The position numbers and the translations under genes are program-made. This document shows positions 2,467 to 25,564 of a DNA stretch of 64,000 nt, one piece after another. The DNA is from a phage. The DNA lies in sequence record OZ413487.1, one strand, 5' to 3'. The notes under the pieces are model-generated. The model made no database searches. It was not told the DNA's origin and saw only the letters and a list, made by a program, of their open reading frames with translations. The first letter of the stretch is position 1; every line of letters begins with the position of its first letter.

Positions 2467-4890
2467 ATGAGCATGTGGTCGTTCGACTTTGAGTCATCCG
2501 GTTTGCTGGAAGACCCAGATCTTTATTATCACTGCGGCCTGTTTAAAGAGCTGAATAAGAACCGTTTTATGCTGTTCCTTCCTCTAAATGACCGCACACA
2601 CTACTCCGAGGAGGATATAGAAAAGGCTAAGAACTTCATTCTGGCAAAGAAAACTCTTTATAAAGATTTTGAAGTTCGCATAGCAGATTTTTCAGAGTTG
2701 GAAGGTTGGCTTACAGGAAATTCTGACTGGTCACCAACAGCTTTGAACTGCCATAACTGCTACAGTTATGACTTTATGCTGATGGAAAGATTATCTGGTA
2801 TTCATTTTGATATGTTCCGTGATCCTAAATGTATGGGGACTATCAACGATCACCAGGTTAACCTGTTTGATACGTTGGCGATGAGCCGAATCTTGTGGCC
2901 TGATCGCCCTTTACCAAAAGGTTGTCCGGACTCTGTATTCAACCCGGTTACTAAGAAAATGCAGCCTGTTGGTCCTCACGGCCTTATGGCATGGGGCTAC
3001 GCCCTTGGTAACCAGAAAGTTCAAATTGATGACTGGCGCGATCTTCCGTTGTGGAAGTATGTGGATCGTGTATTCGAGGACGTTATCATCCAGGAGCTGC
3101 TCTGGAAAGAGCTGGTAGCGGAATCAAAAGGTGTATTCTACGGCAAATCTGACATGCAGAACTTTATGTACGATCCGGCCAAAGAGAAGCCGAAAGGGTT
3201 CAAGAAGATCACCTGGAAGAACGCATTACGTCGAGGCATGCTGCAGCACTTCCTGATGGAGCTGCAGGCCCGTCAGGGTGTATACTTCGACATAGATGGA
3301 GCTATTGCTTTACGTGACCGTTGCGATGCGTGGATGAAAGAAATCGCTGATCGTGTTGAACCACAACTACCTTTAAAAGAGCTGTCAATGTCTCAGCGGC
3401 CCAAGTTCCCTGAAAAGCCGTTTAACCAAGACGGGACAATCTCTAATAATGGTTGGAAATGGTTAAAAGATAAGCTTGGCTATCCTGTAGACATGAGTGC
3501 TTTAGAGTTCAAAGCCCTGCCTAAGCGAGCATTTACCTCTACAGGAGATGTCAGCAAGATGGGGATAAAATGGTGTGAAGAGATGGGCTGCAAAGACCCC
3601 GATAAGATGGCTGATTTCTTGAGAGGCTATATTAAGGGCACCTCCACACCACAACCCTTACCTAAAGAGCTGATGGATCAGGCAATAAGTGATCTGCAGC
3701 AGAAGCGAATGCCTGACTGCAAGATACCTATGAAAATCAGCAATCAGGACGACATCAAGCGATACCTAATCAGTGCTGGTTGGCTCCCAACAATGTGGAG
3801 AACTAAAGATGTAACTAAAGACAGCAAGAAGAAAGCTTTACCTGATGCAGATGTTGATGCACGAGTATATGCATATATGGACGAGCTTTTGGAGTCAGAG
3901 TATTGTGACCTAATTATCAACTTCTGGAACAAAACTGATGCTAAGTTCCAGACAACCGTGCACAAGTTCCGAAGCTTTCCTAACTCCGAAAGGATTAAAA
4001 AGGAAGTATTCGGGAAAATACGTAGAAAAGCCAGGGCACTTATTACTTCTCCGCAACTGAAAGATACGTTTGGACACCTATGCCCAAATCTTGAAAAATT
4101 GAACGGAGAGATGGCTAAAGATATCGTCTTGTGGTTATCATTGCGAAACCGCAGATCGGTCCTTGATCCAATCAAGGAGGATAAGGTTGATACTGGTCTT
4201 CTTAATCACCCACGTTTGAAGATTGACCATAAGCTTCCTGCTAAAAGCTCTGGATTAACAAACACTTCCAGACAGAAACACAGTATTTGTGCAAACATGC
4301 CTAAACCATCTCCTAAAGTAGTTATGGGTAAAGAGATGCGTAGTCTGTGGGGTGTTCCTCCAGGATACTTTGAGATCGGTATTGACGGGTCCAACTTAGA
4401 GCAGCTCATCGGGGCTTGGGGTGCCTTTGAGTTCGACAACGGCTTGTATTATGATGTTGTAAGTAACGGAGACGCACACCAAAACAATGCTGAGGCATAT
4501 ACAAAAGTGGCAGGCAGAGAGGTGTCCCGTAACGACGGTAAACCTATCACGTATGGGGTTATGTACGGGGCACAAAAAGATAAAGTTGCAGATATGCTGG
4601 ACATCTCCCCAGAGTTGGGACAAAGGGTAATCGATGCACTCTGGGATGCCAACCCAGGTCTTAAGGGGCGCAAAGAGGATCTGGAGAAATTCTGGGAAGC
4701 AACAGGTAAGAAGTTTATCTACTCTTTTGATGGTCATGCTATCTGGACCCGATCTAAACACTCTTTACTTAATGCATACCAACAAAATGGCGGTGCATCG
4801 TTGTGTGACTTAGTTGGAATACTCATGCACCACCAGATGGTGAAGCGTGGGTGGTACGATGAAGGTGTTCGTCGTATTATTTATTACCAT
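2467..4890 (+). CDS. DNA polymerase, family A, exon 1 (3'-5' exo + polymerase motifs A and B, up to His of motif C)
   Basis: N-terminal exo I motif FDFESSGL; motif A GIDGSNLEQ; motif B RNDGKPITYGVMYGAQ; ORF ends ...RRIIYYH-K-stop where family A polymerases have VHDE. Confidence 0.8.
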
Positions 4891-5166
4891 AAATAACATT
4901 GTGGCTTCATAGAGTAATCTATGTCGAATAACCTCTTTAACTGCGGGAAGCCTAAACCTTATGGCAAGGTAATCCGCAACGAAGCGCTCAAAAGAGCGAA
5001 CGCTCAGAGGCCATTCCGAAAGGAAGTAGACCAGCAAGTGCGGTCGAAATGGGAGGATTCCTGTGGTTGCTTATCATAGGAATATGAGATGGTCCGATCC
5101 TACGTGAAAACGTATGGCTATGCACGTAATGGTGCGGGGTAGCTTAACGACCTACCTGAACTATTG
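4891..5166. other. putative group I self-splicing intron in DNA polymerase gene
   Basis: Exon 1 ends in U (4890); intron ends in G (5166); internal guide CAUUGUGG (4897-4904) can pair with exon-1 end CCAU (P1, U.G at splice site) and exon-2 start GAUG (P10); four in-frame stops; splicing restores YYH-DEYQLQV. Confidence 0.55.
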
Positions 5167-8699: not shown

Positions 8700-9925
8700 T
8701 GAGCGTTATTCAACAATTCGCTAACCCGATGAATCCGCGTGAAACTGTTTTACTAGCTCACGGCATGATTAAACGTGTCAGCATCAAGCCTATCAAAGGT
8801 GCTGATCCTACAACAGGTATTAAAACCACTGTGTGGCAAGGTAAGAAAATTGAATCCAGCCACACCATCTCTTTACTGATTTCTGAACTGGATTCCTCTG
8901 ATAACCTACTTCAAGGTGGTGAAGAAGTTTGGATCAGTATGGGCGATAAGCTGCTTAAACCAGGTCATCAAGACTCTGTCTCTGTTAAAATTGATGACAA
9001 GTGGGAAACCGTAACGCCAGGATGGATCGTAAATATCCCTTTGAAGGCAAACGAGCATAACGGTAAGACCTACTACAAAGGCTCACTGGCTAAGATGGTT
9101 AAGCTGGGTGCAGGAGAGGCTCCAGCAGCGACTCAGCAGCAAAAACAGCAACAAGGTGCACAATCACAAGGCCAGAAGCAGAAACCTCAGCAGAATGCCA
9201 ATCAGGACGTTTTACGCATCTATGGTGATGTGACTCAGATTGTTGGCAACGTGGTTACTGTTAATGACCACAAGATTGGCGAAGGTGCTATGGTTGTCAC
9301 TGATGAGCAGCTTAAAGACCTGGTGGTAGGTGGTCGTGTTGCAGCCATTGTTGACAAAGACACCGGAAACATTATCAGTGGCTTCAAGGCCTATCCTCCT
9401 AAGGCAGAGAACGGCACTCAAGGCTCTGGTGGCAAGCGTAAATCCTCTTACGACCCTATCGGTGTGGAGACGGGACATAGCATCAATGCGTTGCAGATCA
9501 TCCTGGATCGCGGGTTTAAGGTGGACGACCCACTAGGCGTGGCTAAAACACTGCACGTAGTCACCATTGAGCTTAAGAAAGAGTATGCTCAAGCCACCAA
9601 CCGAACTGAAGATGAAGTAGGTGCCAGTGTCGGCAATGCGGTGTTGAACGCTTGTCGCCGTATTGACAAGAAAACGAAAGTTGATGATTTTGCAGCGGCA
9701 ATTACTGCAGAAGCAAAAGATGTCTTGACTAATCTGGCTGAGCCGTTGTACGATTGGATCAAGAACGGTGCTGGGTCCACTGACCATCAAGAACCTCAAG
9801 CTGCCAAACAGGAAGCAGCTCCACAGCAAAACACTGTAGACGCTCCTCCTGTAAATGACGAGGAAGATGACCCGATGGATCAGAATCCAGCACAGTATGA
9901 GTTCGATGACTCGATCCCTTTCTGA
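8699..9925 (+). CDS. putative ssDNA-binding protein
   Basis: C-terminus QYEFDDSIPF resembles the acidic DDDIPF tail of bacterial SSB; Gln/Pro-rich linker; sits in the replication module. N-terminal fold not verified. Confidence 0.45.
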   Translation: MSVIQQFANPMNPRETVLLAHGMIKRVSIKPIKGADPTTGIKTTVWQGKKIESSHTISLLISELDSSDNLLQGGEEVWISMGDKLLKPGHQDSVSVKIDDKWETVTPGWIVNIPLKANEHNGKTYYKGSLAKMVKLGAGEAPAATQQQKQQQGAQSQGQKQKPQQNANQDVLRIYGDVTQIVGNVVTVNDHKIGEGAMVVTDEQLKDLVVGGRVAAIVDKDTGNIISGFKAYPPKAENGTQGSGGKRKSSYDPIGVETGHSINALQIILDRGFKVDDPLGVAKTLHVVTIELKKEYAQATNRTEDEVGASVGNAVLNACRRIDKKTKVDDFAAAITAEAKDVLTNLAEPLYDWIKNGAGSTDHQEPQAAKQEAAPQQNTVDAPPVNDEEDDPMDQNPAQYEFDDSIPF

Positions 9926-13718: not shown

Positions 13719-14044
13719 CAGAAATCATCATTTCAACTGCAGGGTATGTGTTCCTGACAATCATTGCACTGACTATTTTGGTGACAGTGTATGGGTTTGT
13801 TATCCTTCCTATCCTTGAGACATTTAGTTTGTGTCGGTGTTGGAGAAAAGCTTACGGTCCACAACCATGGAAGGACTGGCCCCACCTGGTGCGCTTAGCG
13901 TTCTCTTATGCTTACGATCACTCCAGTAGTGCATGCATAACCGGATACCACGCCCACAACTGGAGCTGGGAAGGGTTGAGGAAATGGAATGTTACAAAGA
14001 CCATACCTCTGCGCATGTACAAACCTAAAAACAAAGACAACTGA
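13715..14044 (+). CDS. hypothetical membrane protein
   Basis: N-terminal hydrophobic segment YVFLTIIALTILVTVYGFVILPIL. Confidence 0.4.
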   Translation: MTEIIISTAGYVFLTIIALTILVTVYGFVILPILETFSLCRCWRKAYGPQPWKDWPHLVRLAFSYAYDHSSSACITGYHAHNWSWEGLRKWNVTKTIPLRMYKPKNKDN

Positions 14045-14640
14045 TACTTGAAAATTCTTGGCATATCAAGTATAAGGGGGATTTCTAAAATGGATTTCCT
14101 CCTTTTGATATTTCACCGGGCCGGATATTTTAAAATTCTTAGAAAATCAGAAAATGGATCGAAAACTAAAATGGATTTTTCAGAGTAGGCGCGACAAGCT
14201 GAATAACTCATCCTATCGTTTGCACCATATTCCAGGCCACCATTATAGATTTCCCACACATGCTAACCTCCCTCTACTAGAACTTCCTCCACTTACCCTT
14301 GACCTTCTATGGTAACAATCTAACCGCTATCTTGAAGTTGCTGTGCAGCTTTCCAGGTACTCGATCTACTTTTCATTTCAGGGCTTGGATTTTCTGAAAA
14401 TTTTTCTCGATAAATTTCTCAGTACTCGATCTGTTTTTCGTTTTCTGAATCGGATTTTCTGGAAATCGTTCCGGCTCTCGACCTGAAATTTTTGGGGACG
14501 AAATCGATTTTTCGTTTTCAGAAATGGATTTTTAAAATTTCTATATGGGAATATTTTATGGGATACTGTTTTATAGGAAATTGTTACGGAGGGTAATTAG
14601 CGTGCTAATTAAATTTATTAAATGCGAGGAGTTCTCATTT
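14045..14640. repeat. AT-rich iteron array (AAATGGATTT, GGATTTTCTG, TACTCGATCT units; 64-bp tandem at 14351-14478)
   Basis: Direct read: repeated decamers and two ~64-bp tandem units; no credible ORF. Confidence 0.6.
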
Positions 14641-14680
14641 AGAATTTTGAATGATAATCATTCTCGTTTGCAGAATAACG

Positions 14681-14703
14681 GGCAGGCCCGGTGATTGTCT
14701 CCC
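14681..14703 (+). repeat. conserved 23-nt motif GGCAGGCCCGGTGATTGTCTCCC, copy 1
   Basis: Near-identical copy in inverted orientation at 22121-22143; related copy at 14822-14837. Confidence 0.6.
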
Positions 14704-14821
14704 GGCCCCTACTGCCCCGGCTTGTTATTATAGTATCACACAGGACAAAGAAAGCAAGGATTTTTTGCATAAATTTTTAAATGATAATGATAACCGTTCT
14801 CATTTTATGCAGCGCCCATCC

Positions 14822-14837
14822 CCGGTGGTTGTCTCCC
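14822..14837 (+). repeat. conserved motif CCGGTGGTTGTCTCCC, copy 2
   Basis: Second copy of a ~65-nt unit (begins TTAAATGATAAT... like copy 1). Confidence 0.5.
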
Positions 14838-14880
14838 CCGTCACCGGTGCCTGCCGTCCTTTCGATAGGTATATCGTGCC

Positions 14881-15195
14881 ACCTGGCGGGGCCGCTGTCA
14901 ACACTTTTCAAAAAATTTTTCTAACCTGATGCGCTAACCGCTGCAACCTGGCGGGGTCAGCCTGGCAGGACCTAACTGACCGGGTAGGAGAGAATGAAGG
15001 CTTGTAAACCTGGTGGGCCTATGCTACAGGATAGGTAACAATTGAAGAGGAGGTACAAAAATGAAAGGTAATATGATCCCCCTAGAAAATGTAGCTATTA
15101 ATGACGCTGAGGCTATCGCCCTGGTTGAAAAGGCTATGGCGGGAGCGTTGGAACATAAAGAAGAGTACGAAAAATGGTGGTTAACCTGGCGGGGG
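14881..15195 (+). repeat. four copies of ACCTGGCGGGG-like motif
   Basis: Copies at 14881, 14946, 15007 (ACCTGGTGGG) and 15184; first three spaced ~62-65 bp. Confidence 0.5.
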
Positions 15196-15228
15196 CGGCA
15201 GGTGGATTCTATCATAAAAATAATTTAA
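15061..15228 (+). CDS. hypothetical small protein (55 aa)
   Basis: ATG with strong GAGGAGG RBS; below ORF-track length cut-off. Confidence 0.35.
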   Translation: MKGNMIPLENVAINDAEAIALVEKAMAGALEHKEEYEKWWLTWRGRQVDSIIKII

Positions 15229-15236
15229 AATAGTCG

Positions 15237-15265
15237 TTGACAACAAGGTTAATCATGGTATTATT
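15237..15265 (+). promoter_or_regulatory. sigma70-like promoter (TTGACA, extended -10 TGgTATTAT)
   Basis: Shares AAAATAGTCGTTGACA context with promoter at 6648. Confidence 0.5.
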
Positions 15266-15315
15266 ACCCTACAAGGTGAACAACACCGCACTAACCAGTA
15301 AAGAGGATAAATTTA

Positions 15316-15512
15316 TGAACGCATACGGGATCAAAGTACGTCGCAACACTCGCCAGGTGGTCACCAATCAAGTGATTTGCCGGGTGGATGTAACCATCAA
15401 CAACGGGCAAGGCCTTTATAAATTTCGTCGCGGTCATAGCTATACCCTGCAACAGCTTAATCGTTGCGCCCTGACAAAAGGTCAGATCAACCATTGGTTT
15501 AATAAAAAATAA
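15316..15512 (+). CDS. hypothetical basic protein
   Basis: ORF track 15237..15512; start moved to ATG after AGAGGA RBS. Confidence 0.4.
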
Positions 15513-15515
15513 GTA

Positions 15516-15544
15516 TTGACATACAGTCCGACACCAAATACACT
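15516..15544 (+). promoter_or_regulatory. sigma70-like promoter (TTGACA-17-TACACT)
   Basis: Precedes gene at 15577. Confidence 0.5.
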
Positions 15545-15576
15545 AAAAGCACAAAAGACACTAAGAGGATAAAATC

Positions 15577-15975
15577 ATGAAAACCACTACCTTTAATTTT
15601 GATAATGCAGACTTTTCTTTTTCTGATGTCAAGAACTGCCGCCGTGATCGTGGATTTTACAAGGCTTATAATCTGGTGGGCCTGGACGATGACAATAATT
15701 TGCACGAAGTAGCTGAGATCCGGTATTATGCCGCCGCCAGCGGTAACACTAACTACTGCGTTTTTTGGATACACGACAACAAGAACAATAAGTACGGTTA
15801 TACTGGTGGCAAGGCTAGCGGTCACGGTTATGATAAAGCCAACGCTGCACTTGAAAGCGCATTAAATGCCATGGGAATCACTGCCGACGGCTGGATCTAT
15901 GAAGAAGAGTTTTTGGCGGCACTTGCTGCCCACCTGGGCTATAAAAAGCACATTGTAACATGCGCCCACGAATAA
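15577..15975 (+). CDS. hypothetical protein
   Basis: ORF track; AGAGGA RBS. Confidence 0.5.
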   Translation: MKTTTFNFDNADFSFSDVKNCRRDRGFYKAYNLVGLDDDNNLHEVAEIRYYAAASGNTNYCVFWIHDNKNNKYGYTGGKASGHGYDKANAALESALNAMGITADGWIYEEEFLAALAAHLGYKKHIVTCAHE

Positions 15976-15986
15976 AAAAAAAATTA

Positions 15987-16014
15987 TTGACACGCTGCAA
16001 AATTCAAGTAAACT
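15987..16014 (+). promoter_or_regulatory. sigma70-like promoter (TTGACA-16-TAAACT)
   Basis: Precedes gene at 16063. Confidence 0.5.
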
Positions 16015-16062
16015 AGGCACAAAAGGCGGGAATGTTTCCCGCCAACACGAAGGAAAAAGATC

Positions 16063-16458
16063 ATGAATAAAAACGTACGCCGCATCATGAACGAACTGGC
16101 AAACGATGAAAAAATTATTGATATGCATTTGGTCAACATTTGCCGCCGTTGTGTAACATATAACAACCGCGCCGCAAAAGCGCGTGAGATGAACGCAAAA
16201 GGCACCTTAAAGCCCTTTCAGGTGGTTGTAAAATCTATGACCAGTGCAGCAGGCCAGGCGCATGACCACAACAACGGGAGCACTAATATTGATCCATCTT
16301 ACGTAATGAAACGGATCCGGACTTGCAAGAATAAAGAGCAGGTGTATAACGTCATAGATTGGCTGGACTCCCTGGGTGACGTGGTTTACAATAGGTTTTC
16401 TGCAGCTATTGAAATTCAGTTAGACAGGTTGGACGGGAAAGTACTGAAAACTTACTGA
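16063..16458 (+). CDS. hypothetical protein
   Basis: ORF track; AAGGAAAAAGA RBS region. Confidence 0.5.
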   Translation: MNKNVRRIMNELANDEKIIDMHLVNICRRCVTYNNRAAKAREMNAKGTLKPFQVVVKSMTSAAGQAHDHNNGSTNIDPSYVMKRIRTCKNKEQVYNVIDWLDSLGDVVYNRFSAAIEIQLDRLDGKVLKTY

Positions 16459-16460
16459 GT

Positions 16461-16506
16461 TTATTTTTAGATGGCCTTGACTCCAGGGCCATCAATAAAG
16501 TAAACT
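16461..16506 (+). promoter_or_regulatory. repeated hairpin/promoter element, copy 1
   Basis: GATGGCC-TTGACTCCAG-GGCCATC inverted repeat enclosing TTGACT, then TAAACT 18 nt downstream; sits directly after a stop codon. Confidence 0.55.
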
Positions 16507-16538
16507 AATCCCAGTTAAGCGAAAAAGGAGGCTTGAAG

Positions 16539-16658
16539 ATGAGCACTACACGCCAGCACACAAAGGTAACTATTATCGTTTGCATCATTGGTTATATCCT
16601 GGCGCAAATGTTGATGGGTAGCGCTAACGGTGTCGCAAAATTTTTCTTAAACTTTTAA
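16539..16658 (+). CDS. hypothetical small hydrophobic peptide (39 aa)
   Basis: ATG after AAAAAGGAGG RBS; hydrophobic core IIVCIIGYILAQMLMG. Confidence 0.3.
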   Translation: MSTTRQHTKVTIIVCIIGYILAQMLMGSANGVAKFFLNF

Positions 16659-16659
16659 T

Positions 16660-16687
16660 TGACAAGCTAACTTAGATCAGTATACTA
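16660..16687 (+). promoter_or_regulatory. sigma70-like promoter (TTGACA-16-TATACT)
   Basis: Precedes gene at 16736. Confidence 0.55.
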
Positions 16688-16735
16688 AACACATAAACGG
16701 GAAAACTTCCCAGAACACCAAAAGGAGAAAACATT

Positions 16736-17086
16736 ATGAATACTTCCATCACTATGACCGCCGAAGAAAAAGCCCTGCAGATCGCCGCTCTGAAAAAACA
16801 GATTGCAGAACTTGAAGACAAGATCGACAATTTTGAAATCGACGAAGACAAATACGACGATAAATATGATGAATGGTTGGACGAGATCTACGGCGAAATT
16901 ATGATCGGAAACATTTCTTTTCTTCCGTCGCGTATCCTCAAGGAGCTAGATCCTATCGCTTACCGCTGCGGATTTAGCGACTACATCGACAGCCTGGATA
17001 TTGAGGACGATGAAGAATACCAGGAATTGCAGACAGAGCTTGAAGAAGTGAAAGAAGAGCTTGCAGAACTGGAAGAAAACGAGTAA
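16736..17086 (+). CDS. hypothetical acidic coiled-coil protein
   Basis: ORF track; AAAGGAGA RBS; Glu/Asp-rich. Confidence 0.5.
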   Translation: MNTSITMTAEEKALQIAALKKQIAELEDKIDNFEIDEDKYDDKYDEWLDEIYGEIMIGNISFLPSRILKELDPIAYRCGFSDYIDSLDIEDDEEYQELQTELEEVKEELAELEENE

Positions 17087-17088
17087 GA

Positions 17089-17134
17089 TTATTTTTAGAT
17101 GGCCTTGACTCCAGGGCCATCAATAAAGTAAACT
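17089..17134 (+). promoter_or_regulatory. repeated hairpin/promoter element, copy 2
   Basis: Identical to copy 1 over ~45 nt. Confidence 0.55.
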
Positions 17135-17175
17135 TTATACTGTTAACACTGAACTAATGCATAGGAGTTAAAACC

Positions 17176-17421
17176 ATGGCAGCACTAATCACCAAATATT
17201 ATGCCCCTACCAACACCAAAAGCGCCCGTATCATGGTAAAAGGCTTCGGACGTAAAAAGGTTTACACTTGGGATTATTCCCTAGACATGGAAGACAACTA
17301 CACCAACGCGATGACCGATTTTATTAATGAACTAAATAAGCAGATCTTAACCAATTATAAGGTGACCGACATCGCCTATGTTGGGGAAGGTGGGATCTGT
17401 TTTGTCGGTATTGTCAAATAA
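17176..17421 (+). CDS. hypothetical protein
   Basis: ORF track; AGGAG RBS. Confidence 0.5.
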   Translation: MAALITKYYAPTNTKSARIMVKGFGRKKVYTWDYSLDMEDNYTNAMTDFINELNKQILTNYKVTDIAYVGEGGICFVGIVK

Positions 17422-17430
17422 GCTGTTTTT

Positions 17431-17470
17431 TCGGTGGTCCTGGTGGCAGGGCCATCTATAAAGATAGTTT
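17431..17470 (+). promoter_or_regulatory. repeated element, degenerate copy
   Basis: Shares CAGGGCCATC-nATAAAG 3' half with copies 1-3; 5' half diverged. Confidence 0.35.
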
Positions 17471-17496
17471 ATTAACACCATGAAAGGAGAAAGTAC

Positions 17497-17850
17497 ATGA
17501 TCAGCGGGGCTAGTTTTATTATTGGCGCTATTGCTACAGCTTTAATTGTAAACAAGATCCAGGATAAAAAGGAAAGAGGAAGTACCGCCCTTGCAGAATA
17601 TCCATTTTGGACATTCAACGATAACGAAGATTATATTATAAAGTATAAAAATAAAGAAGGTGACCAAGTAACACCGCGACCGATCCCGGCTTACAAGATG
17701 CAGGAAACACTATACCGCTTGGAGGCAGGGGGCGCAAAAATTGTGGACTTTTGGGGATACGATCACACAGATCAGGAAGTTATAAAGCGCCGTATCCGGG
17801 CTATTCAGGCCAATATTGAAGTTAGCAAGGGGGGAATATATGAAGATTAA
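17497..17850 (+). CDS. hypothetical protein with N-terminal hydrophobic segment
   Basis: ORF track; AAAGGAGA RBS. Confidence 0.5.
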   Translation: MISGASFIIGAIATALIVNKIQDKKERGSTALAEYPFWTFNDNEDYIIKYKNKEGDQVTPRPIPAYKMQETLYRLEAGGAKIVDFWGYDHTDQEVIKRRIRAIQANIEVSKGGIYED

Positions 17851-18037
17851 TTTTGAGAAAATTGTAAAGCGATCTCATGATTCCGAAGAGCTGCCGGAAC
17901 GCCGCCAGCGTAACAATAAACTGAATAAGCCAAAAAGATTTGGGAAGATCTGGCGGAATCATTATGATCGTAAATTGCCGGGCCTCCTTTTGGAACGTGA
18001 ACGGCAGGCGGAACGATACCGCCACAAAGGCAACTAA
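17840..18037 (+). CDS. hypothetical basic protein
   Basis: ORF track 17816..18037; start moved to ATG after AAGGGGGGA. Confidence 0.4.
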   Translation: MKINFEKIVKRSHDSEELPERRQRNNKLNKPKRFGKIWRNHYDRKLPGLLLERERQAERYRHKGN

Positions 18038-18045
18038 CAACCAAC

Positions 18046-18074
18046 GCCCCGCCATCGTGCGGGGCTTTTTATTT
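18046..18074 (+). terminator. intrinsic terminator
   Basis: GCCCCGC-CATCGT-GCGGGGC followed by TTTTTATTT. Confidence 0.7.
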
Positions 18075-18195
18075 CTACCCTACGAATAGCGCCCCTGGTT
18101 GGCCCCACAACGCCCTAAAAGCCCCCTACCCATGCAATCCCATTTCTTAACCTGAAAACATCGTCAAAGGCTGTTTTAAAGCGTTAAAAATATTG

Positions 18196-18223
18196 TTGAC
18201 ATCTAAAATATTCTAGATATACT
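18196..18223 (+). promoter_or_regulatory. sigma70-like promoter (TTGACA-16-TATACT)
   Basis: Precedes gene at 18259. Confidence 0.55.
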
Positions 18224-18258
18224 AATCACATCAAAGCGAGAAGTAAGGAGTAAACGCC

Positions 18259-18519
18259 ATGCGTAAATTAAAAAATTTTGATAAAGTTGATATTGTCCTG
18301 AATAATTTTTACTACTGCAATAACAAGGCCGTTTGGTGGCGTGATAGTTCCACCGATAAAGTCAAGGCGCGCTTTCTCCAGGGGCACTGGCAAGGCCGCC
18401 CAGTGATTAAAATCATGGGGCAATTGGTAGCGTTTAAAAATTGCCGCCGTGTTGATGACGTTGAAGAGATTTTAAACATTTTGCGCCACAATAATTTAAA
18501 AAATAGTGTTGACAAGTAA
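18259..18519 (+). CDS. hypothetical protein
   Basis: ORF track; AAGGAG RBS. Confidence 0.5.
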   Translation: MRKLKNFDKVDIVLNNFYYCNNKAVWWRDSSTDKVKARFLQGHWQGRPVIKIMGQLVAFKNCRRVDDVEEILNILRHNNLKNSVDK

Positions 18520-18536
18520 ATCTCAATAAGTATAAT
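18509..18536 (+). promoter_or_regulatory. sigma70-like promoter (TTGACA-16-TATAAT)
   Basis: Consensus hexamers; precedes gene at 18594. Confidence 0.6.
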
Positions 18537-18593
18537 TAAAAACACAGGCGGGAAAACTTCCCGCCACTAACAAAGAAAACAGGAGAAAATATC

Positions 18594-19217
18594 ATGACCA
18601 CCGTTAACATTACCACAGGTTACAATTTATCTTTCGACGTGCTGACCGACGAACAAAAAGAAAAAGCCGTGGAAATGGTCCGCGAAAGAGAAGAACACAG
18701 CGGGGATAACTTTTTTGCAGAAAGTGTAATTGAGTACTATAAAGAATATGTTTTTCCAGAGTACGGCCTTGAAGATACCGATGTACATTGGTCAGGCTTT
18801 TGGTGCCAGGGTGACGGCGCGTCAATCAGTGCGGAAAACGTGGATTTAGAAAAATTCTTGCGTAAAGTCAAGTCTCTGACTAAATTCCGCTCAATTCGTC
18901 ACTTGTTCGGCACAATGCACGATGGCGAGTTATCCGCAAGTGTTGAGCGTGATCCATATAGCCGCTATAGTCACGAAAACACTGTAAACGGATACATCGA
19001 TACTACATGGCTAGACCTGACCACCAAACAAGAAAACAAAGTGGAAGATCTGGAAGAGCTGATCACCGAGACGGTACGGGAGTTATCCCGCAAGGTTTAC
19101 GTAGACCTGGAGGAGGCCTATCTTGAACAATTCACCGCCGAAAACTTGATCGGCCTTATCGAGGCCAATGATTGGCGGTTTGATGTCGATGAACACGGTA
19201 AGATGACTTTTTCATAA
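18594..19217 (+). CDS. hypothetical protein
   Basis: ORF track; CAGGAGAAAA RBS. Confidence 0.5.
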   Translation: MTTVNITTGYNLSFDVLTDEQKEKAVEMVREREEHSGDNFFAESVIEYYKEYVFPEYGLEDTDVHWSGFWCQGDGASISAENVDLEKFLRKVKSLTKFRSIRHLFGTMHDGELSASVERDPYSRYSHENTVNGYIDTTWLDLTTKQENKVEDLEELITETVRELSRKVYVDLEEAYLEQFTAENLIGLIEANDWRFDVDEHGKMTFS

Positions 19218-19225
19218 ATAAAGTG

Positions 19226-19253
19226 TTGCAATAACCTAAAAACCTGCTATATT
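19226..19253 (+). promoter_or_regulatory. sigma70-like promoter (TTGCAA-16-TATATT)
   Basis: Precedes gene at 19306. Confidence 0.45.
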
Positions 19254-19305
19254 AAAACTCAAGGGGCAAGACGTTTGCCCCACACAAAACAAAGAGGTAA
19301 ACATT

Positions 19306-19686
19306 ATGAAAAACACTACTAAAGCTATTGACACCGTTATGTTTAACCTGGTTACATTCCGTGAAGATATGAAAGATCTTCCACGTGAAACAGTGTGCGA
19401 TCACATTGAAAACTATCGCAAACTAATCAAAGAGTTGCCTTTAAAACGTGACCAGTATGCGGCTAACGCTATGCTTAACGCCATGATCAAAAAGATGATT
19501 CAGTGTGATTTAACTCTGGCCTATGATTATGCAGGTGGTCGTTTTGCAGTATACAATCAGCCCGTGCCTGGTATGAGCACCACCGAAGAATTGCACGCGT
19601 TAAATCTGAAACAAGATGTATGGGATAACATGCCCCGCGTGGTGGTGTGGGCAGAAAGCGGAAAGATTTACGGCGATAATTTTTAA
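19306..19686 (+). CDS. hypothetical protein
   Basis: ORF track; AAAGAGG RBS. Confidence 0.5.
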   Translation: MKNTTKAIDTVMFNLVTFREDMKDLPRETVCDHIENYRKLIKELPLKRDQYAANAMLNAMIKKMIQCDLTLAYDYAGGRFAVYNQPVPGMSTTEELHALNLKQDVWDNMPRVVVWAESGKIYGDNF

Positions 19687-19696
19687 TCAGGTAACA

Positions 19697-19722
19697 GGCG
19701 GCATATTTGCCGCCTTATTGTT
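19697..19722 (+). terminator. intrinsic terminator
   Basis: GGCGGCA-TATT-TGCCGCC followed by TTATTGTT. Confidence 0.6.
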
Positions 19723-19750
19723 AAACAGAACTGCAAAAGAGGTACATAGA

Positions 19751-20122
19751 ATGGAATTTATTATTTTGGCTGTAGTAGTTGCCTTGTTCAACGCCTGGAT
19801 CGCTGGCAAGATAGGTAGATCCGCTTTTCTATGGTTTGTTATATCTATTTTCCTGGGAGTGGTTGCAACTATTGTATTGGTTATCCTTGCAATTGTTGAC
19901 AAGGGCGATAATAGAAAGGGTAAAGTGTTTTCCGACCTGTATGACGCACAAACGTTTGTCAACGCCTATTATAGTGATCTTCCAGTCTCCCTACGCTGCA
20001 GCCTGGCACAACAGGTTTTTGATGAGGCTAAAACCAGAGACCAAGCCCATGAGATATGTTTAACTGAAGCGGATCGCCTATTTGAGAGGAATAGAAAATA
20101 TGTGGACCAGCCGTTTAAATAA
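19751..20122 (+). CDS. hypothetical membrane protein
   Basis: ORF track 19616..20122; ATG 19751 after AAAGAGG; two hydrophobic helices. Confidence 0.45.
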   Translation: MEFIILAVVVALFNAWIAGKIGRSAFLWFVISIFLGVVATIVLVILAIVDKGDNRKGKVFSDLYDAQTFVNAYYSDLPVSLRCSLAQQVFDEAKTRDQAHEICLTEADRLFERNRKYVDQPFK

Positions 20123-20465
20123 CGCCACGTTAATTAATCCCTTTAGTGAAGATTTGAAGCCAGCCGCCTGGCGTGACGGATTCAATAACGAACGCTTTAT
20201 TTTCAGGCCTGATCTTGAGGAATTTTATAACAATGGATCGAACAACAGCGGAGATAATTTTTCTTGTGGTGTGCGTGGTGATAGGACTCCTGGGGGCCAT
20301 TGTAAACCACGTCACTACTAACAGGAGGGAAGGGGGAGACGATGACAACCAAAGATAAGCCATGCGCTGATAAGGTGCGCCGTGTTATGGTATGGCTTGA
20401 GATTATCGCCCTTGAAATATTGTTAGGCGTAGGGATGTACTTTATCGCTGTAAGTAACTAAGAGC

Positions 20466-20494
20466 GGCCCCCGATCATGGGGGCCTATCTTTTA
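20466..20494 (+). terminator. intrinsic terminator
   Basis: GGCCCCC-GATCAT-GGGGGCC followed by TATCTTTT. Confidence 0.65.
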
Positions 20495-20515
20495 AAAAAT
20501 TTTTCTTCCGGGGTG

Positions 20516-20544
20516 TTGCAATCCGGTCCGGAATGTGGATAATA
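20516..20544 (+). promoter_or_regulatory. sigma70-like promoter (TTGCAA-17-ATAATA)
   Basis: Precedes gene at 20600. Confidence 0.45.
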
Positions 20545-20599
20545 ACAATCAACGGGGAGCTAATCCCCACCACCACAAAAACCAGAAAGGAGAAACAAA

Positions 20600-20800
20600 A
20601 TGAGCAACAATATCCGCGTTATTAACTTCAAAAAAGAAGAAAAAATTGCCGTGCTGATTGACGGTCAAGAAATCTTCAAGGGCGACTATGAAGATCATCA
20701 AACGGCGATTAGTATCACTCGCGTGATTGGTTATCATAATTTCTACCCCCAAGGCGCTGAGGCAGCAGTTAAACGAATCAAAGAGATTGTAGGCCTGTAA
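20600..20800 (+). CDS. hypothetical protein
   Basis: ORF track; AAAGGAGAAA RBS. Confidence 0.5.
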   Translation: MSNNIRVINFKKEEKIAVLIDGQEIFKGDYEDHQTAISITRVIGYHNFYPQGAEAAVKRIKEIVGL

Positions 20801-20803
20801 AAT

Positions 20804-20848
20804 TTATTTTTAGATGGCCTTGACTTCAGGGCCATCGATAAAGTAAAT
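20804..20848 (+). promoter_or_regulatory. repeated hairpin/promoter element, copy 3
   Basis: Same element as 16461 and 17089 with 2 substitutions (TTGACTTCAG loop, GATAAAG). Confidence 0.55.
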
Positions 20849-20893
20849 TTAAACCCTGTTAAAATACCACGCAGTTAACAAGGAGTGATAGAC

Positions 20894-21193
20894 ATGTTTA
20901 TCCAGGCTAATAATCTTTATTTCTTTGATGGTCAGATCGTAGATGGTGTGGAAGTGGAGATCACCGGGTGCCCTGGCGGTCAGGCTATGACTTTTCGGAA
21001 TAATGCCTTTGATGATTCTCATATCGTTATAAGAATGGAAGTTACGAAGCTGGACGACAAGAAAACACTTATTGACTATTCTGTGAAAGATCATCCAGAC
21101 TACCGCATGATCCATGGTGATTTGTGCATTGTTGACCGTGACAAGGTGGGCGGCATTGTGATCGCTATTGTGAACGATGTTTTCTCAAACTAA
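20894..21193 (+). CDS. hypothetical protein
   Basis: ORF track 20885..21193; ATG 20894 after AAGGAG. Confidence 0.5.
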   Translation: MFIQANNLYFFDGQIVDGVEVEITGCPGGQAMTFRNNAFDDSHIVIRMEVTKLDDKKTLIDYSVKDHPDYRMIHGDLCIVDRDKVGGIVIAIVNDVFSN

Positions 21194-21210
21194 TTTCAGC
21201 AGGCGATTTT

Positions 21211-21561
21211 ATGAAAGTCAAACTATATTACCTTAATGAGCTTAACCCCCTTGCCCAGGTCCGCGCCCTAGCTAATACCTTGATTTGTGAGAAATCTGTA
21301 TATTGTGTTGAGCTTAACGCCATGCGTGAACGTCTCAAAGGTGGTTACTTTGACATCCATGCTGCAATCAACGGCCTGAATATGGAATTTATACGCTTAC
21401 GTAACAGCCGCCGGAATCTGGCAAGAATGGAACAAGATCCGGCCCACCTTCGTAAACTGGTTATTGAAAATCATCTGATGTTTAATGCCGAGGGGGATTA
21501 TTACCATTTTCACCGCAAACGCTGGTACCGTGGCGGCAATACAGGCAAGAATGCAAAATAA
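21211..21561 (+). CDS. hypothetical protein
   Basis: ORF track. Confidence 0.5.
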   Translation: MKVKLYYLNELNPLAQVRALANTLICEKSVYCVELNAMRERLKGGYFDIHAAINGLNMEFIRLRNSRRNLARMEQDPAHLRKLVIENHLMFNAEGDYYHFHRKRWYRGGNTGKNAK

Positions 21562-21598
21562 GGCCCCTAGCAGGGCCTGCAGCAATATAATCACATAA

Positions 21599-21630
21599 AG
21601 GCCATGCGGTTGCATGGCCTTTATTATTTT
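21599..21630 (+). terminator. intrinsic terminator
   Basis: AGGCCATGC-GGTT-GCATGGCCT followed by TTATTATTTT. Confidence 0.7.
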
Positions 21631-21678
21631 GGCGTTACAACGGCATACGGGGCGCTTAAAAAATTTTTAAAGAAGTAC

Positions 21679-21707
21679 TTGCATCATTCCCGACAATATG
21701 GATAATA
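21679..21707 (+). promoter_or_regulatory. sigma70-like promoter (TTGCAT-17-ATAATA) driving a region with no convincing ORF
   Basis: Downstream 21714-22100 has only a 22-codon ORF with RBS and a distant 11-bp inverted repeat. Confidence 0.45.
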
Positions 21708-22120
21708 AGAGTTGTCGAGGGGGAGGCCCCCAATCGTTGACCAGATAGATAGGAGTTAAAATCATGGCTATTGTTACCGCTGGCTATCTTCAAAGATGCG
21801 GAAGCAAAACAACGCCGGATCTCAATACATGAGATCATCAACCTTAACGCTGGAGGCACACCATACCGCCCAGGACCTGGCCGTGAGATGGACAATACGC
21901 TAGCGATCCTGAAGATACGCCGTAAACGGTCCTCCCTTACTCTGGACTCATTACACACAATGCAGCCTCCGTTCCAGGTGACCGGGAAACGGATCGCCAG
22001 GTCCTGGACAAAGGCCAATGATCGGACCGTATAAATAAAAGTGTTTTGGTACTGATTTTGGGGTTGACTTGTTCGGCCCCTTTTGCTATTCTTATTAAAC
22101 GGGCGGCACTTGGGAACAGG

Positions 22121-22143
22121 GGGAGACAATCACCGGGCCTGCC
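22121..22143 (-). repeat. conserved 23-nt motif, copy 3 (inverted orientation)
   Basis: Reverse complement GGCAGGCCCGGTGATTGTCTCCC matches copy at 14681 at about 21/23 positions. Confidence 0.6.
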
Positions 22144-22167
22144 TGTCATATAAGAACTATAAAAACC

Positions 22168-22196
22168 GTTGACATCTGCCATGGGGTGGGGTAACA
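22168..22196 (+). promoter_or_regulatory. sigma70-like promoter (TTGACA-17-TAACAT)
   Basis: Precedes gene at 22252. Confidence 0.5.
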
Positions 22197-22251
22197 TTTA
22201 TCTTGAAGGGGCAAAAGTGCCCACACAACAACCAAGAGAGAGGAAAACACT

Positions 22252-22524
22252 ATGTCAAACTGGATTAATCAAGAAGTCGAATCACGTTTTAATGCTATTT
22301 GGGATCTCATCGAAAAAGAAGACGGCACATCAAGCCCCTACCTCAACAATTTGGAATTCCATTTTGTGGAAGCGATGAACGCAGAACATGATCACGAAGG
22401 TGGCGCGGATGAGTTCGCTAAAGGTTATGGCTTTAACAATGCCAACGAAATGATCGAGGCGGTAGTACTCCAGGCTGAGGAAGATTATCAACTAAAAACG
22501 CTTGAATTCTGCCGCCGCAAGTAA
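22252..22524 (+). CDS. hypothetical protein
   Basis: ORF track; GAGAGGAAAA RBS. Confidence 0.5.
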   Translation: MSNWINQEVESRFNAIWDLIEKEDGTSSPYLNNLEFHFVEAMNAEHDHEGGADEFAKGYGFNNANEMIEAVVLQAEEDYQLKTLEFCRRK

Positions 22525-22584
22525 TAAGATAATGACACGGGCCAAAAGGCCCACTAATCAGAACCGCACAAAGAGGTAAACATC

Positions 22585-22848
22585 ATGAAACGTCTTGATC
22601 AGCTCAAATTAGTTCAATATATGGCTTATCGTGTTCTTGAAGTCCAGAAAGGTAGCAAAAAAGAGGTTTGCGAGAAAGCTTATAAGATCTTCACTCGCAA
22701 AAAAGATGACTGGATGCTACGCCAGACTAAAAAGGCTGACATCTTGGGGTACCTGGAAGAAGAGATCCGCCTTGAAGAGCAAGAAGAGATCCGCCGTAGT
22801 GAGGCAGATTATCAGGCAGCTTGGGAAAACTGGATGAGCAACAAATAA
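22585..22848 (+). CDS. hypothetical protein
   Basis: ORF track; AAAGAGG RBS; last + strand gene before the noncoding zone. Confidence 0.5.
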   Translation: MKRLDQLKLVQYMAYRVLEVQKGSKKEVCEKAYKIFTRKKDDWMLRQTKKADILGYLEEEIRLEEQEEIRRSEADYQAAWENWMSNK

Positions 22849-22867
22849 TACAACAAGGTGCACGGTC

Positions 22868-22893
22868 AGGGGCTTAAAGCCCCTTTCTTTTTG
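22868..22893 (+). terminator. intrinsic terminator ending the + strand gene block
   Basis: AGGGGC-TTAAA-GCCCCT followed by TTCTTTTTG. Confidence 0.7.
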
Positions 22894-23502
22894 TCTCCTC
22901 TTTTCCTACCACAAATGGCCCCGCCTGGCAAATGGAATAATCAACAAGCCAGCAATTAACCCCACTGTACAAACATACATATAAAATAACTATTGCATAA
23001 TTTTTCATTGTGTGGTAGCAGTGCCATTTTTACACGTTTTTCCTTCCAAAATTGCACGTAATGCAGCATTTGCACAAAATTTAACCTGATGCATATCTTC
23101 AATAGCTTGTCAACAACTAAAAATCTTTATAAGTCATACACTTACATAACTACAAAAACGTTTTCTACGTGAAAAATCGAGTATAACTATAGCCGCCAGA
23201 TCTCAGAATTTACGTACGCTCGCCATTCTATAGCCTGCTAAGCATTTATTCCAACCATAGAATAACGGAATAGTCAATACCTGCATAAAATAATTATTCG
23301 TGTAAACTGCATAACATAAATCGGCCCAGGTGTCAACATTTTTCGTAAACAGTCTGGAATTGTCACGTTAGGTTACCATAAGCAGAGAAATCTTTAGTCG
23401 TCTAATGTTTACTGTACATTACTATACTGACTGGAATCATTAGATGACTAAGAGAAAGATAAGAAATAATTAATAATGTAATTATTTTACCTGTAACAAT
23501 AA

Positions 23503-24134: not shown

Positions 24135-24505
24135 ATCCCTGTATGGATCGCCAGTGGTGCGCATAATAGGTATTATGTTAAATTGCCCGTAATGATAACA
24201 GTTCTCACAATGATAGGTATTCTCATTCATCCACACAAAATAGGTTGCAAATGTTGTGCCACTGTGTGAACGGCCTGGCCTATTAATTTCTCTCACTGCC
24301 TCGATATTTGAGAATTGTTATCCCTGTATGGATCGCCAGTGGTGCGCATAATAGGTATTATGTTAAATTGCCCGTAATGATAACAGTTCTCACAATGATA
24401 GGTATTCTCATTCATCCACACAAAATAGGTTGCAAATGTTGTGCCACTGTGTGAACGGCCTGGCCTATTAATTTCTCTCACTGCCTCGATATTTGAGAAT
24501 TGTTA
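24135..24505. repeat. tandem duplication, two ~185-bp units
   Basis: Unit beginning ATCCCTGTATGGATCGCCAGTGGTGCGCATAATAGG... occurs twice head-to-tail, essentially identical. Confidence 0.85.
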
Positions 24506-25564
24506 TAAGAATGAGAAGTATTCCCATTCCGTCCGCCTGGCAGCACTCCTGTAGGTCCTGCAAGGACTCTAGCTGAAAGCTAGACCCTTCGGGCCTCCCT
24601 GTAGGTCAGGTCAAAATCGTGGTAGAATTGGGCCTGTTCAGATATTTCTGGCTGACTCTTCAGGTCTGTGTGGGAAAAGCCAACCTCTCCGGCGGGGCAG
24701 GGGGTCATGACGGGAAAATTGCAGGTCAATTAAAAAATTTACGTGGTGTATGAAGCGCTCTTCAGGTAAGGCATGTATTATGGGATGAAACCCTCTTCAG
24801 GCAATGATATTTGTGGGTGTGATATTTGCTGGAAAGCCAGATATGACGGGACTCCCGGCGGGGATGGGGTAGTACAGACAGGGAAAATATGAGAATGTAG
24901 TTGGGGAAATTGATCAGACAGGTAGAGTATGGAATATGTTACAAGTATGTTAAATATGGAGGTTGAATATCTGTAGGATTTGTGTGTAAAATCAAAGACT
25001 TAAGGGGTGTTGTGGTATTTTCTATAAATAATTCAAGTTTAATAGGCAATATTTGTCTCTATCCGCTTTGTGTGGTAAACAGATTCAGATTAGATTGGTT
25101 TACAAGTGTATACATAATATACAAATTAAAGATACAAGAAACCCCCCTCCCCCTTCGGCTACCATTCACCTTTTCCTCTGACTGGTACTTAAACACTTAT
25201 TCAGACTCTTCAGGTTATCACCCATATATCATATGGCAGTGACTGGTGTCCTCCGGCCCCTCTTTCGTCACCCGTCCGCTTCGCCATGCTAATGCCATAG
25301 CCAATGGTTCGGTTGTTCACTCTGTTCACTCAGGTGTATCTCCATACCCCTTCAAACCGAAGAGAACAGAAAACCCGAATTACTCGGTAAAAGAAAAGAG
25401 AAGAACTTAATTTTATCAGGATAGGCAAGAATGTCAAGGCATGACTGCTCACTAAACAAGCAAACAGTCATGTGTGGAAGGTAAGTGATTGTGGTGGTGG
25501 GAAATTTAGTTGAAAGATGTGTTATAGGTGCTCCCAGCACTTTAGCCGGGTAGCTAATTGTGTG

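Follow-up and report, generated by a model that had tools for sequence, protein, structure and literature searches.

Several described systems resemble parts of the locus considered here. PrrF1 and PrrF2 of Pseudomonas aeruginosa are tandem Fur-regulated small RNAs (sRNAs), and the OOP RNA of phage lambda is a short convergent antisense transcript that ends at a terminator. The invertible segments Mu G, P1 C and Salmonella Hin consist of short inverted repeats around a few kilobases of DNA. RyhB is a Fur-repressed sRNA of E. coli, and Fur retards the ryhB site in a gel-shift assay (PMC2189734). At its inner end, the left terminal repeat of phage T5 carries "Repeat Region 3" and a series of palindromes (palC/palD and others), and the T5 repeat regions have been described as highly conserved non-coding repeats of unknown function, in a paper that discusses DnaA boxes, not Fur boxes (Davison, bioRxiv 10.1101/866236). 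We analyzed a 64,000-nucleotide (nt) stretch of phage DNA, sequence record OZ413487.1, designated the window, in which a 23-nt motif, GGCAGGCCCGGTGATTGTCTCCC, brackets a block of small early genes in inverted copies. Our favored reading, to which we assign a probability of roughly 0.5, is that the 23-mer is the promoter-proximal core of paralogous, Fur-box-controlled short transcription units, of which copies 1 and 2 would head the gene block and copy 3 would be a convergent, sRNA-like unit.

The motif occurs with no mismatch at 14681-14703 (+) and again at 22121-22143 (-), and no further site with three or fewer mismatches exists in the 64 kb, where shuffled sequence gives an expectation of 0.00. 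The original prediction described the reverse-complement copy as near-identical; it is identical, and the repetition is non-random. Searching with the 16-nt core, CCGGTGRTTGTCTCCC, finds three sites in the window, at 14688, at 14822-14837 (+) and at 22121 (-). The two plus-strand copies have in common a 33-nt stretch (14637-14669 and 14773-14805, 73% identity) and a 17-nt stretch (14687-14703 and 14821-14837, 94% identity), with a start-to-start distance of 134-136 nt, so the repeat unit of about 65 nt previously proposed for them is right in outline only. A profile constructed from the corresponding units of other phages and run on the window returns exactly three units, at 14644-14706 (+) with an E-value of 1.5e-19, at 14786-14838 (+) with 1e-7, and at 22149-22117 (-) with 8e-8, the last aligned only from an AT-rich hexamer onward. 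Copies 1 and 2 lie in a non-coding gap of about 900 nt (~14340-15240) that separates co-oriented small genes. Copy 3 sits between the terminator of the gene at 21771-22034 and a consensus promoter at 22169. Between the outer copies are small plus-strand open reading frames (ORFs) and many sigma-70 consensus promoter-like sites, and the outer copies do flank this block as had been claimed.

Against rV5-like E. coli myophages (Vequintavirus) the region shows 91-97% identity, with vB_EcoM_10C2_SA_NWU as the best match, and by sequence the window is an rV5-like Vequintavirus. The motif sites have the same position and orientation in EdH4 and isim. Short-query searches found the motif, intergenic every time, in Certrevirus (CR8, POP15, phiTE), Seunavirus (SPLA5a), Henunavirus (Hena1), Mydovirus (BIS47, AV124), Stephanstirmvirinae (phiWec181, KP13-26) and metagenomic relatives, and in all these phages the sequence ahead of it reads ...TTGAATGAGAATCATTCTCATTTGCAGAATAGCG. 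In these phages the motif belongs to a unit of about 60 nt: a palindromic box comes first, an AT-rich hexamer follows, and 4 nt separate the hexamer from the motif, which starts GGCAGG. The hexamer varies between copies (CAGAAT, CTGAAT, CGGAAT, TTATAT, TTTTAT, GAGAAT), while its 4-nt distance to the motif is constant. In most genera the 16-nt core has no change or only one or two; it is more diverged in Mydovirus and in the inverted unit of Hena1. An Aeromonas phage (Plateaulakevirus) keeps the box and GAATAGCGGGCAGGTC, followed by a different C/U-rich continuation. In T5-like phages the left terminal repeat has, at its inner end, a diverged homologue consisting of the box, GAGAAT, and GGGGCAC-TCCCTGRTAGTT-GYGCCCC. 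Conservation of the unit thus reaches far beyond that of the surrounding genes, and about 480 INPHARED genomes gave matches.

In every Vequintavirinae or Stephanstirmvirinae locus of sufficient length, the small-gene block has a single sense unit on its upstream side and a single inverted unit on its downstream side; a Phapecoctavirus has the same bracket, which was present in each of the six genera compared. The profile recovers both the sense and the inverted unit in rV5-like phages, CR8, SPLA5a, POP15 and Hena1 (13010+ and 21089-); the inverted unit of phiWec181 was found by core search only. The distance from sense to inverted unit is 7.4 kb in the window and 7.7-12 kb elsewhere. Since paired units occur in every long enough locus, the bracket is real and ancient, as well as functionally constrained. 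Because the motif occurs only two or three times per genome, it is not an element scattered genome-wide without relation to the block, the outcome by which the original prediction was to have been refuted.

The conserved sequence is non-coding. ORFs that overlap the motif are broken in relatives by stops and by frameshifts from 1-2-nt insertions or deletions, and substitutions in them are not concentrated at third positions (8/8/2 and 6/6/0 by codon position, for example), which rules out a coding role for motif-spanning ORFs. No Rfam family reached either the gathering score or a low E-value over the window units or eight related loci, and E. coli genomes searched with 14600-14900 showed no similarity. 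We found no description of the unit in the literature on small RNAs and transcriptomes of rV5 and Vequintavirus, on Fur boxes in phages, or on T5 pre-early sRNAs. The pseudo-ToxI non-coding locus of phiTE is in a different place in that genome, at 106.7 kb. A scan of viral contigs with the 16-nt core returned few relevant matches; most were to an unrelated prophage capsid gene. In these enterobacterial prophage contigs (loci L003-L122, from IMG/VR) the core lies inside a capsid-like gene (...CTGCCGGTGATTGTCTCCCAGTAC..., encoding ...LPVIVSQYV...), which is a coding coincidence that swamps naive motif scans. A phage contig of 46.8 kb (L092/L123, IMGVR_UViG_3300027123_000194) has the exact core twice in opposite orientations, each time as TTGAAAAAC..GCC-CCGGTGATTGTCTCCCCCGTTCTCAGGTATTGA...TTATAT; its flanks differ and include no Fur-like box.

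Exact 23-bp inverted repeats on both sides of a gene block are the architecture of an invertible segment, and inversion or excision of the 7.4-kb block by site-specific recombination was among the roles first suggested. The window does resemble Mu G, P1 C and Hin in having short inverted repeats around a few kilobases. Unlike those systems, it offers neither a flipped isoform nor an enhancer, and the block consists of co-oriented, promoter-driven early genes instead of alternative tail-fibre or flagellin genes. A Pfam screen of the ten largest ORFs in the segment and at its edges gave no recombinase and no other family above cut-off. Among the relatives in the matches listed, 30 of 30 align to 14000-23000, flanks and both junctions included, on one strand, with no inverted isoform. 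Block genes are co-oriented with the sense unit in six genera, and the repeats are flanked by promoter-like and operator-like sequence, for which a recombination site has no need. The block is not inverted in these phages, and inversion as the function of the repeats is largely refuted and extremely improbable.

Comparison with relatives also bears on whether the copies mark the borders of an acquired cassette. Relative to even its closest relatives, the window lacks about 2.3 kb (about seven small genes) at ~21780, just inside the right end of the block (compare L001 9277-11485). This length difference is some 340 nt from copy 3, not at the motif, and the cassette proposal is not supported. 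A related idea, that the conserved islands act as homologous-recombination junctions through which related phages exchange gene modules, could draw on the change of block content between genera while the flanking units persist, and on the two alternative alleles of the gene and terminator beside copy 3 that circulate among rV5-like phages. The placement of the indel argues against it in the same way, and 23-60 nt is short for efficient homologous exchange. We consider this role very unlikely; it would in any case be a by-product of conservation, compatible with the other readings.

The palindromic boxes in the units look like Fur boxes. Their consensus, AATGAKAAYNRTTCTCATT, has eight sites in the window, or 16 strand-hits where 0.7 are expected, three of them at 14621-14804 and five at 24191-24528. 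The box at 14783-14801 matches the 19-bp Fur consensus GATAATGATAATCATTATC at 16 of 19 positions, the sole such site in the 64 kb against an expectation of 0.06, and the site at 14647-14665 matches the classical consensus at 15 of 19, as judged by eye. The Fur box in the E. coli ryhB promoter sequence is GCGAATGAGAATGATTATTATT, also given as AATGAGAATGATTATTATT. It has the same 9-1-9 palindrome as the phage box, and its left half is identical to the boxes of POP15 and phiWec181. The window boxes thus agree with both the 19-bp consensus and a verified site, and from this likeness we infer that Fur may bind them. They lie 12-35 nt upstream of the motif and overlap a TTGAAT hexamer that resembles a -35 element, which would make a candidate promoter. 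The same box occurs in phages of Escherichia, Salmonella, Klebsiella, Cronobacter, Pectobacterium, Erwinia and Aeromonas. Its presence in phages of seven host genera therefore points to a conserved host factor rather than a phage-specific repressor. The earlier suggestion of a binding site for a phage factor survives in this modified form: the motif adjoins palindromic, Fur-box-like operators, and a host protein is favored over a phage one.

In unit 1, the Fur-box-like operator at 14647-14668 has one mismatch to the phage box consensus and the 9-1-9 design of the ryhB box; inside it are a perfect palindrome, GAATGATAATCATTC, at 14649-14663, and TTGAAT at 14647-14652. A weaker palindromic site, AATGCGAGGAGTTCTCATT, with three mismatches to the consensus, lies upstream at 14621-14639. 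The candidate -10 hexamer, CAGAAT at 14671-14676 (+), is 18 nt past TTGAAT and 4 nt ahead of motif copy 1, which was found by exact match, core search and profile alike. A possible hairpin at 14680-14717 (+) would pair GGGCAG (14680-14685) with CTGCCC (14712-14717) and CCGG (14688-14691) with CCGG (14702-14705), leaving UGAUUGUCUC in the loop; as a single-sequence fold it has z = -0.96, which is not significant. The operator of unit 2, GATAATGATAACCGTTCTCATT at 14783-14804, has no mismatch to the phage box consensus, and the AT-rich hexamer TTTTAT at 14803-14808 (+) takes the position equivalent to CAGAAT. Motif copy 2 occupies 14822-14847 (+), with its core, CCGGTGGTTGTCTCCC, at 14822-14837; it was found by core search, repeat comparison and profile. 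Here CCGGTG can pair with CACCGG (14842-14847), and the fold has z = -1.08.

Other repeats surround these two units. Three tandem repeats of 65-74 nt, 70-74% identical and with many occurrences of GATC and TTTTCGTTTTC, directly adjoin them on the upstream side, at 14347-14532; in phiTE and KP13-26, too, the units have similar sequences of the GATCGAAATCG type ahead of them. Between unit 2 and the first early ORFs, the leader contains AACCTGGCGGGG three times (14880, 14945, 15183). A second, strongly conserved non-coding block, of about 130-150 nt and of the form CAAGCGTCTTTACAnnTCTTTACAAAACTATT...CCGGCGATTCACCTTCCGACCTGGCCC...GGTACGTTAGCCCCGCCTTTTCGCCGTGGGGTGGCG, lies downstream of the sense unit in phiTE (L140 ~790-960), KP13-26 (L141), CR8, SPLA5a, POP15, Hena1 and phiWec181. 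It has no Rfam match, and in rV5-like phages unit 2 takes its place.

By analogy, such a unit is most like a Fur-repressed sRNA gene. As in ryhB, a Fur box of the form AATGAGAAT-N-ATTnTnATT would cover the promoter directly upstream of a short non-coding unit; the unit is small, and in several phage relatives a terminator hairpin follows about 60-90 nt downstream. The differences are that the phage unit is encoded by virulent phages, that its transcript, Hfq dependence and targets are putative, that copy 3 is without a Fur box or a U tail, and that the RNA bodies are dissimilar except for a 12-nt identity, TTGTCTCGCGAT. This 12-nt sequence is common to the -8 to +4 region of ryhB (L145 140-153) and the motif form of SPLA5a and KP13-26 (L130/L141), and may be either chance or a trace of common origin. 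The two tandem paralogous units, about 135 nt apart and each with its own Fur-type box, recall PrrF1 and PrrF2. They differ from these in that the sequences are unrelated, that the downstream phage unit may run on into early-gene mRNA, and that the phage has a third, inverted paralogue 7.4 kb away.

This third unit resembles a convergent short RNA such as OOP. Motif copy 3 (22121-22143, -), again found by exact match, core search and profile, is preceded by promoter-like elements at 22148-22175 (-), namely ATGTCA (22175-22170), a 16-nt spacer, TTATAT (22153-22148) and 4 nt, and no Fur-like box is present there. About 40 nt downstream in the direction of copy 3 is a GC-rich hairpin at 22060-22080, identified by a terminator scan as the intrinsic terminator of the convergent plus-strand gene at 21771-22034. 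Like OOP, unit 3 is short, is opposed to the flanking genes, and would run into the terminator hairpin of a convergent gene; unlike OOP, it stops in the window before coding sequence is reached, and its transcript is putative. In relatives, the equivalent of 22060-22080 is a bidirectional terminator with U tails on both strands. More generally, inverted-type units have an A-rich stretch and then a terminator hairpin 60-70 nt downstream, with the U tail on the unit's own strand in SPLA5a, EdH4, L057 and phiWec181, and absent from that strand in window copy 3, CR8, POP15, L126, BIS47 and AV124. Copy 1 of rV5-like phages, with ACAGGACAAAGAAAGCAAGGATTTTTT compared with ACAGGACAAAAGCAAGCCCTGTTTT of the inverted-type unit, looks like a paralogue whose terminator has decayed.

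The proximity of terminators raises the question of whether the motifs are mere stems of intrinsic terminators, or mRNA-stabilizing hairpins, belonging to neighboring genes. The T5-like hairpin does lie about 25-35 nt past the stop codon of a convergent gene, and the annotators of phiTE placed a terminator inside the unit. In the window, the terminator scan calls none of the three motif sites, only 22060-22080 beside copy 3, and none of the motif sites is a stable GC stem that runs straight into a U tract. On the minus strand no gene lies upstream of copies 1 and 2, and on the plus strand they lack a good U tract right after a stable stem; copy 3 is beyond the already complete terminator of the plus-strand gene. 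A near-identical 16-nt sequence in most genera would also be unexpected for a terminator, and we regard this explanation as highly unlikely.

If the units are instead Fur-box-controlled transcription units, each would consist of at least one palindromic Fur-box-like operator (missing from the third unit), an AT-rich -10-like hexamer, 4 nt and the GC-rich motif. Two tandem units (14647-14717 and 14783-14847) would point into the early-gene block, and the third, boxless unit (22175 to 22060, minus strand) would face the block and reach the hairpin that also terminates the last block gene. Host Fur-Fe2+, bound to the boxes over the -35 and spacer of units 1 and 2, would repress them; once iron became limiting or Fur was titrated, they would be transcribed by host RNA polymerase. 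The product would be a short RNA or 5' leader with a conserved C-rich segment, acting by base pairing. Copy 3 would give a convergent antisense or insulating RNA, OOP-like, with which read-through mRNA leaving the block would pair. The inverted arrangement of the copies would then result from the convergent orientation of two paralogous units, not from recombination.

Several features are consistent with a base-pairing RNA. The U/C-rich part of the motif, UGAUUGUCUCCC, is anti-Shine-Dalgarno-like, and pairing of the CCGG...CCGG type or an equivalent tends to place it in a loop; around the conserved segment UG(A/U)UUGUCUCC there is often CCGG...CCGG or CCYGG...CCGGG. C-to-U changes in these stems keep G-U pairs on the motif-sense strand only (CCUGG/CCGGG, UCCGG/CCGGG). 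Across units of rV5-like phages, Certrevirus, Seunavirus and Stephanstirmvirinae, the candidate seed GGTG(N)TTGTCTCC is constant in most units except for N and the final one or two bases, while its flanks vary, and several single-sequence folds place it in a loop, as a conserved single-stranded seed should be. In four of six genomes scanned (the window, CR8, SPLA5a and POP15), nothing complements the conserved segment strongly except the opposite strand of the partner unit (-34 kcal/mol). Because mRNA leaving the block would contain that strand, we propose an antisense or insulating role for copy 3.

A number of observations weigh against the assignment of the units to Fur-controlled RNA genes. 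The nnGAAT hexamer is without a conserved A at -11, and its opposite strand, TATTCT, is equally -10-like. The inverted units of Certrevirus and Seunavirus have no -35-like element, and the sequence upstream of them looks like a degenerate second unit. Copy 3 of the window has neither a U tail nor a Fur box, and the hairpin at 22060-22080 has no U tail on the minus strand in the present phage. RNAalifold consensus folding recovered only the terminator, with no covarying conserved structure in the unit, and single-sequence folds are mostly no better than those of shuffled sequences. A possible outer helix, GCGGG/CCCGC, would fall ahead of the predicted start and has uncompensated changes in 6 of 13 lineages. 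It changes from G:C to A:U in Hena1, L148 and phiWec181 and is uncompensated in POP15, KP13-26, L152, L155 and L156; for both reasons we do not rely on it. The T5-like homologue folds into a different hairpin. Scans of the window for targets at ribosome-binding sites did not rise above shuffled seeds, the best match being to a 39-aa gene at 20342-20461 (-26.5 kcal/mol).

Sequence rather than structure is therefore what is conserved, and the transcription start is a predicted one, which makes a DNA-level role a serious rival. The motif and boxes would then form a composite double-stranded DNA binding site for a host or phage protein, which could serve as an operator, a roadblock or an anchoring site that marks the inner and outer ends of a terminal early region, and transcription of the motif would be irrelevant. 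Besides the persistence of primary sequence where predicted RNA folds are not kept, the unbroken conservation from box through hexamer into motif is in favor of this explanation, as are the motif-free box clusters at 24191-24528. On the other side, most operators of dimeric proteins are palindromes and the motif is not one, it always has the same orientation with respect to hexamer and box, the G-U-compatible changes are strand-specific, and no candidate binding protein was identified. On balance we consider the DNA-level site rather unlikely.

Other assignments of the motif were tried and rejected. A Chi-like reading fails in that CCGGTGG differs from GCTGGTGG at two or more positions. Sigma-54, sigma-E and extended -10 promoters do not fit, and the window shows no enrichment of DnaA boxes. 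If the motif were an activator site at about -42 for a promoter lying downstream, the spacing would be 22 nt in rV5 and CR8 and 22-27 nt elsewhere, and the same AT-rich element is found in inverted units, where there is nothing for it to drive.

The location of the box clusters brings in the genome end. Beyond the block, at 22.9-25.3 kb, about 2.4 kb has no convincing genes and is AT-rich (33-38% GC up to ~24.1 kb). Its many short repeats include GTGTGTAAAC-type sequences, ATAGTTGCC, and ATGCAAACGAATGGCATGGC twice. A perfect 185-nt tandem duplication, with two 100% identical copies, occupies 24135-24504. The EdH4 record starts at about window position 24537, some 33 nt beyond the 185-nt segment, and EdH4 has the segment once; in Erwinia phage Hena1, the direct terminal repeat as annotated has a match to 30 nt of the segment. 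The duplication therefore probably marks the physical end of the genome, or its terminal-repeat region, at about 24.1-24.5 kb. The five additional Fur-box-like palindromes at 24191-24528 comprise two tandem pairs within the 185-nt repeats plus AATGAGAAGTATTCCCATT at 24510, which is followed by GGCAGCACTCCTGTAGGTCC, faintly resembling the T5-like version of the motif.

If the end is there, the sense unit is about 9.6-9.8 kb (~7% of the genome) away from it and points toward it. In Hena1 the sense unit is 11.1 kb (7.4%) from the terminus, and in the T5-like phage pork27 the unit is 9.1 kb from the terminus, inside the first-step-transfer region (bioRxiv 10.1101/866236). The pork27 homologue, at 9112-9174, consists of a perfect box, AATGAGAATCATTCTCATT, then GAGAAT and GGGGCACTCCCTGGTAGTTGCGCCCC, with further boxes at 9508-9647 and 5698. 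It differs from the units of the window in being single in each terminal repeat, with no inverted partner, and in having a core about 70% identical. The parallel in terminus distance between the window, Hena1 and pork27 is suggestive only. It counts in favor of a site recognized as DNA: the sense unit is at about 7-7.5% of genome length from the terminus, pointing there, in both Hena1 and pork27, the window would have the same distance with an end at ~24.3 kb, its box clusters would be close to that end, and the T5-like unit and box clusters are in repeat regions proposed to hold the injection stop signal (bioRxiv 10.1101/866236).

Two further features of the window concern neither the motif nor the boxes. 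A group I catalytic intron is found at 4881-5116 (+), with a full-length match to Rfam model RF00028 at 64.7 bits (gathering score 50, E-value 4e-14). An intergenic repeat of about 60 nt, dispersed between early genes at 16458-16518, 17083-17146 and 20800-20862, has promoter-like sites of the form TTGACT-18-TAAACT, and each copy matches several places in relatives.

To our knowledge, virulent phages are not generally thought to read the iron status of the host. As a regulatory module the unit is ordinary in kind; what is unexpected is its conservation in several phage subfamilies, the link to Fur, and the fixed inverted arrangement. We suggest, tentatively and as a possibility less probable than not, that the units represent an undescribed family of Fur-controlled small RNAs or leaders in large virulent enterobacterial phages (Vequintavirinae, Stephanstirmvirinae and T5-like Demerecviridae), coupling the opening minutes of infection to host iron status, with the sense unit also marking the inner border of the terminal 7-8% of the genome. 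Iron limitation is the normal state in the gut and during infection. A Fur-operated non-coding unit kept across phage subfamilies would connect iron limitation directly to early phage gene expression, and this would be relevant to phage therapy with rV5-like and T5-like phages. Some of the palindromes in the terminal-repeat region of T5, long unexplained, would thereby gain a concrete identity, and in rV5-like genomes the border of the terminal early region would have a marker. A sense unit that points to the genome end, as in the first-step-transfer region of T5, may indicate that rV5-like phages share with T5 a staged mode of entry or a common boundary element.

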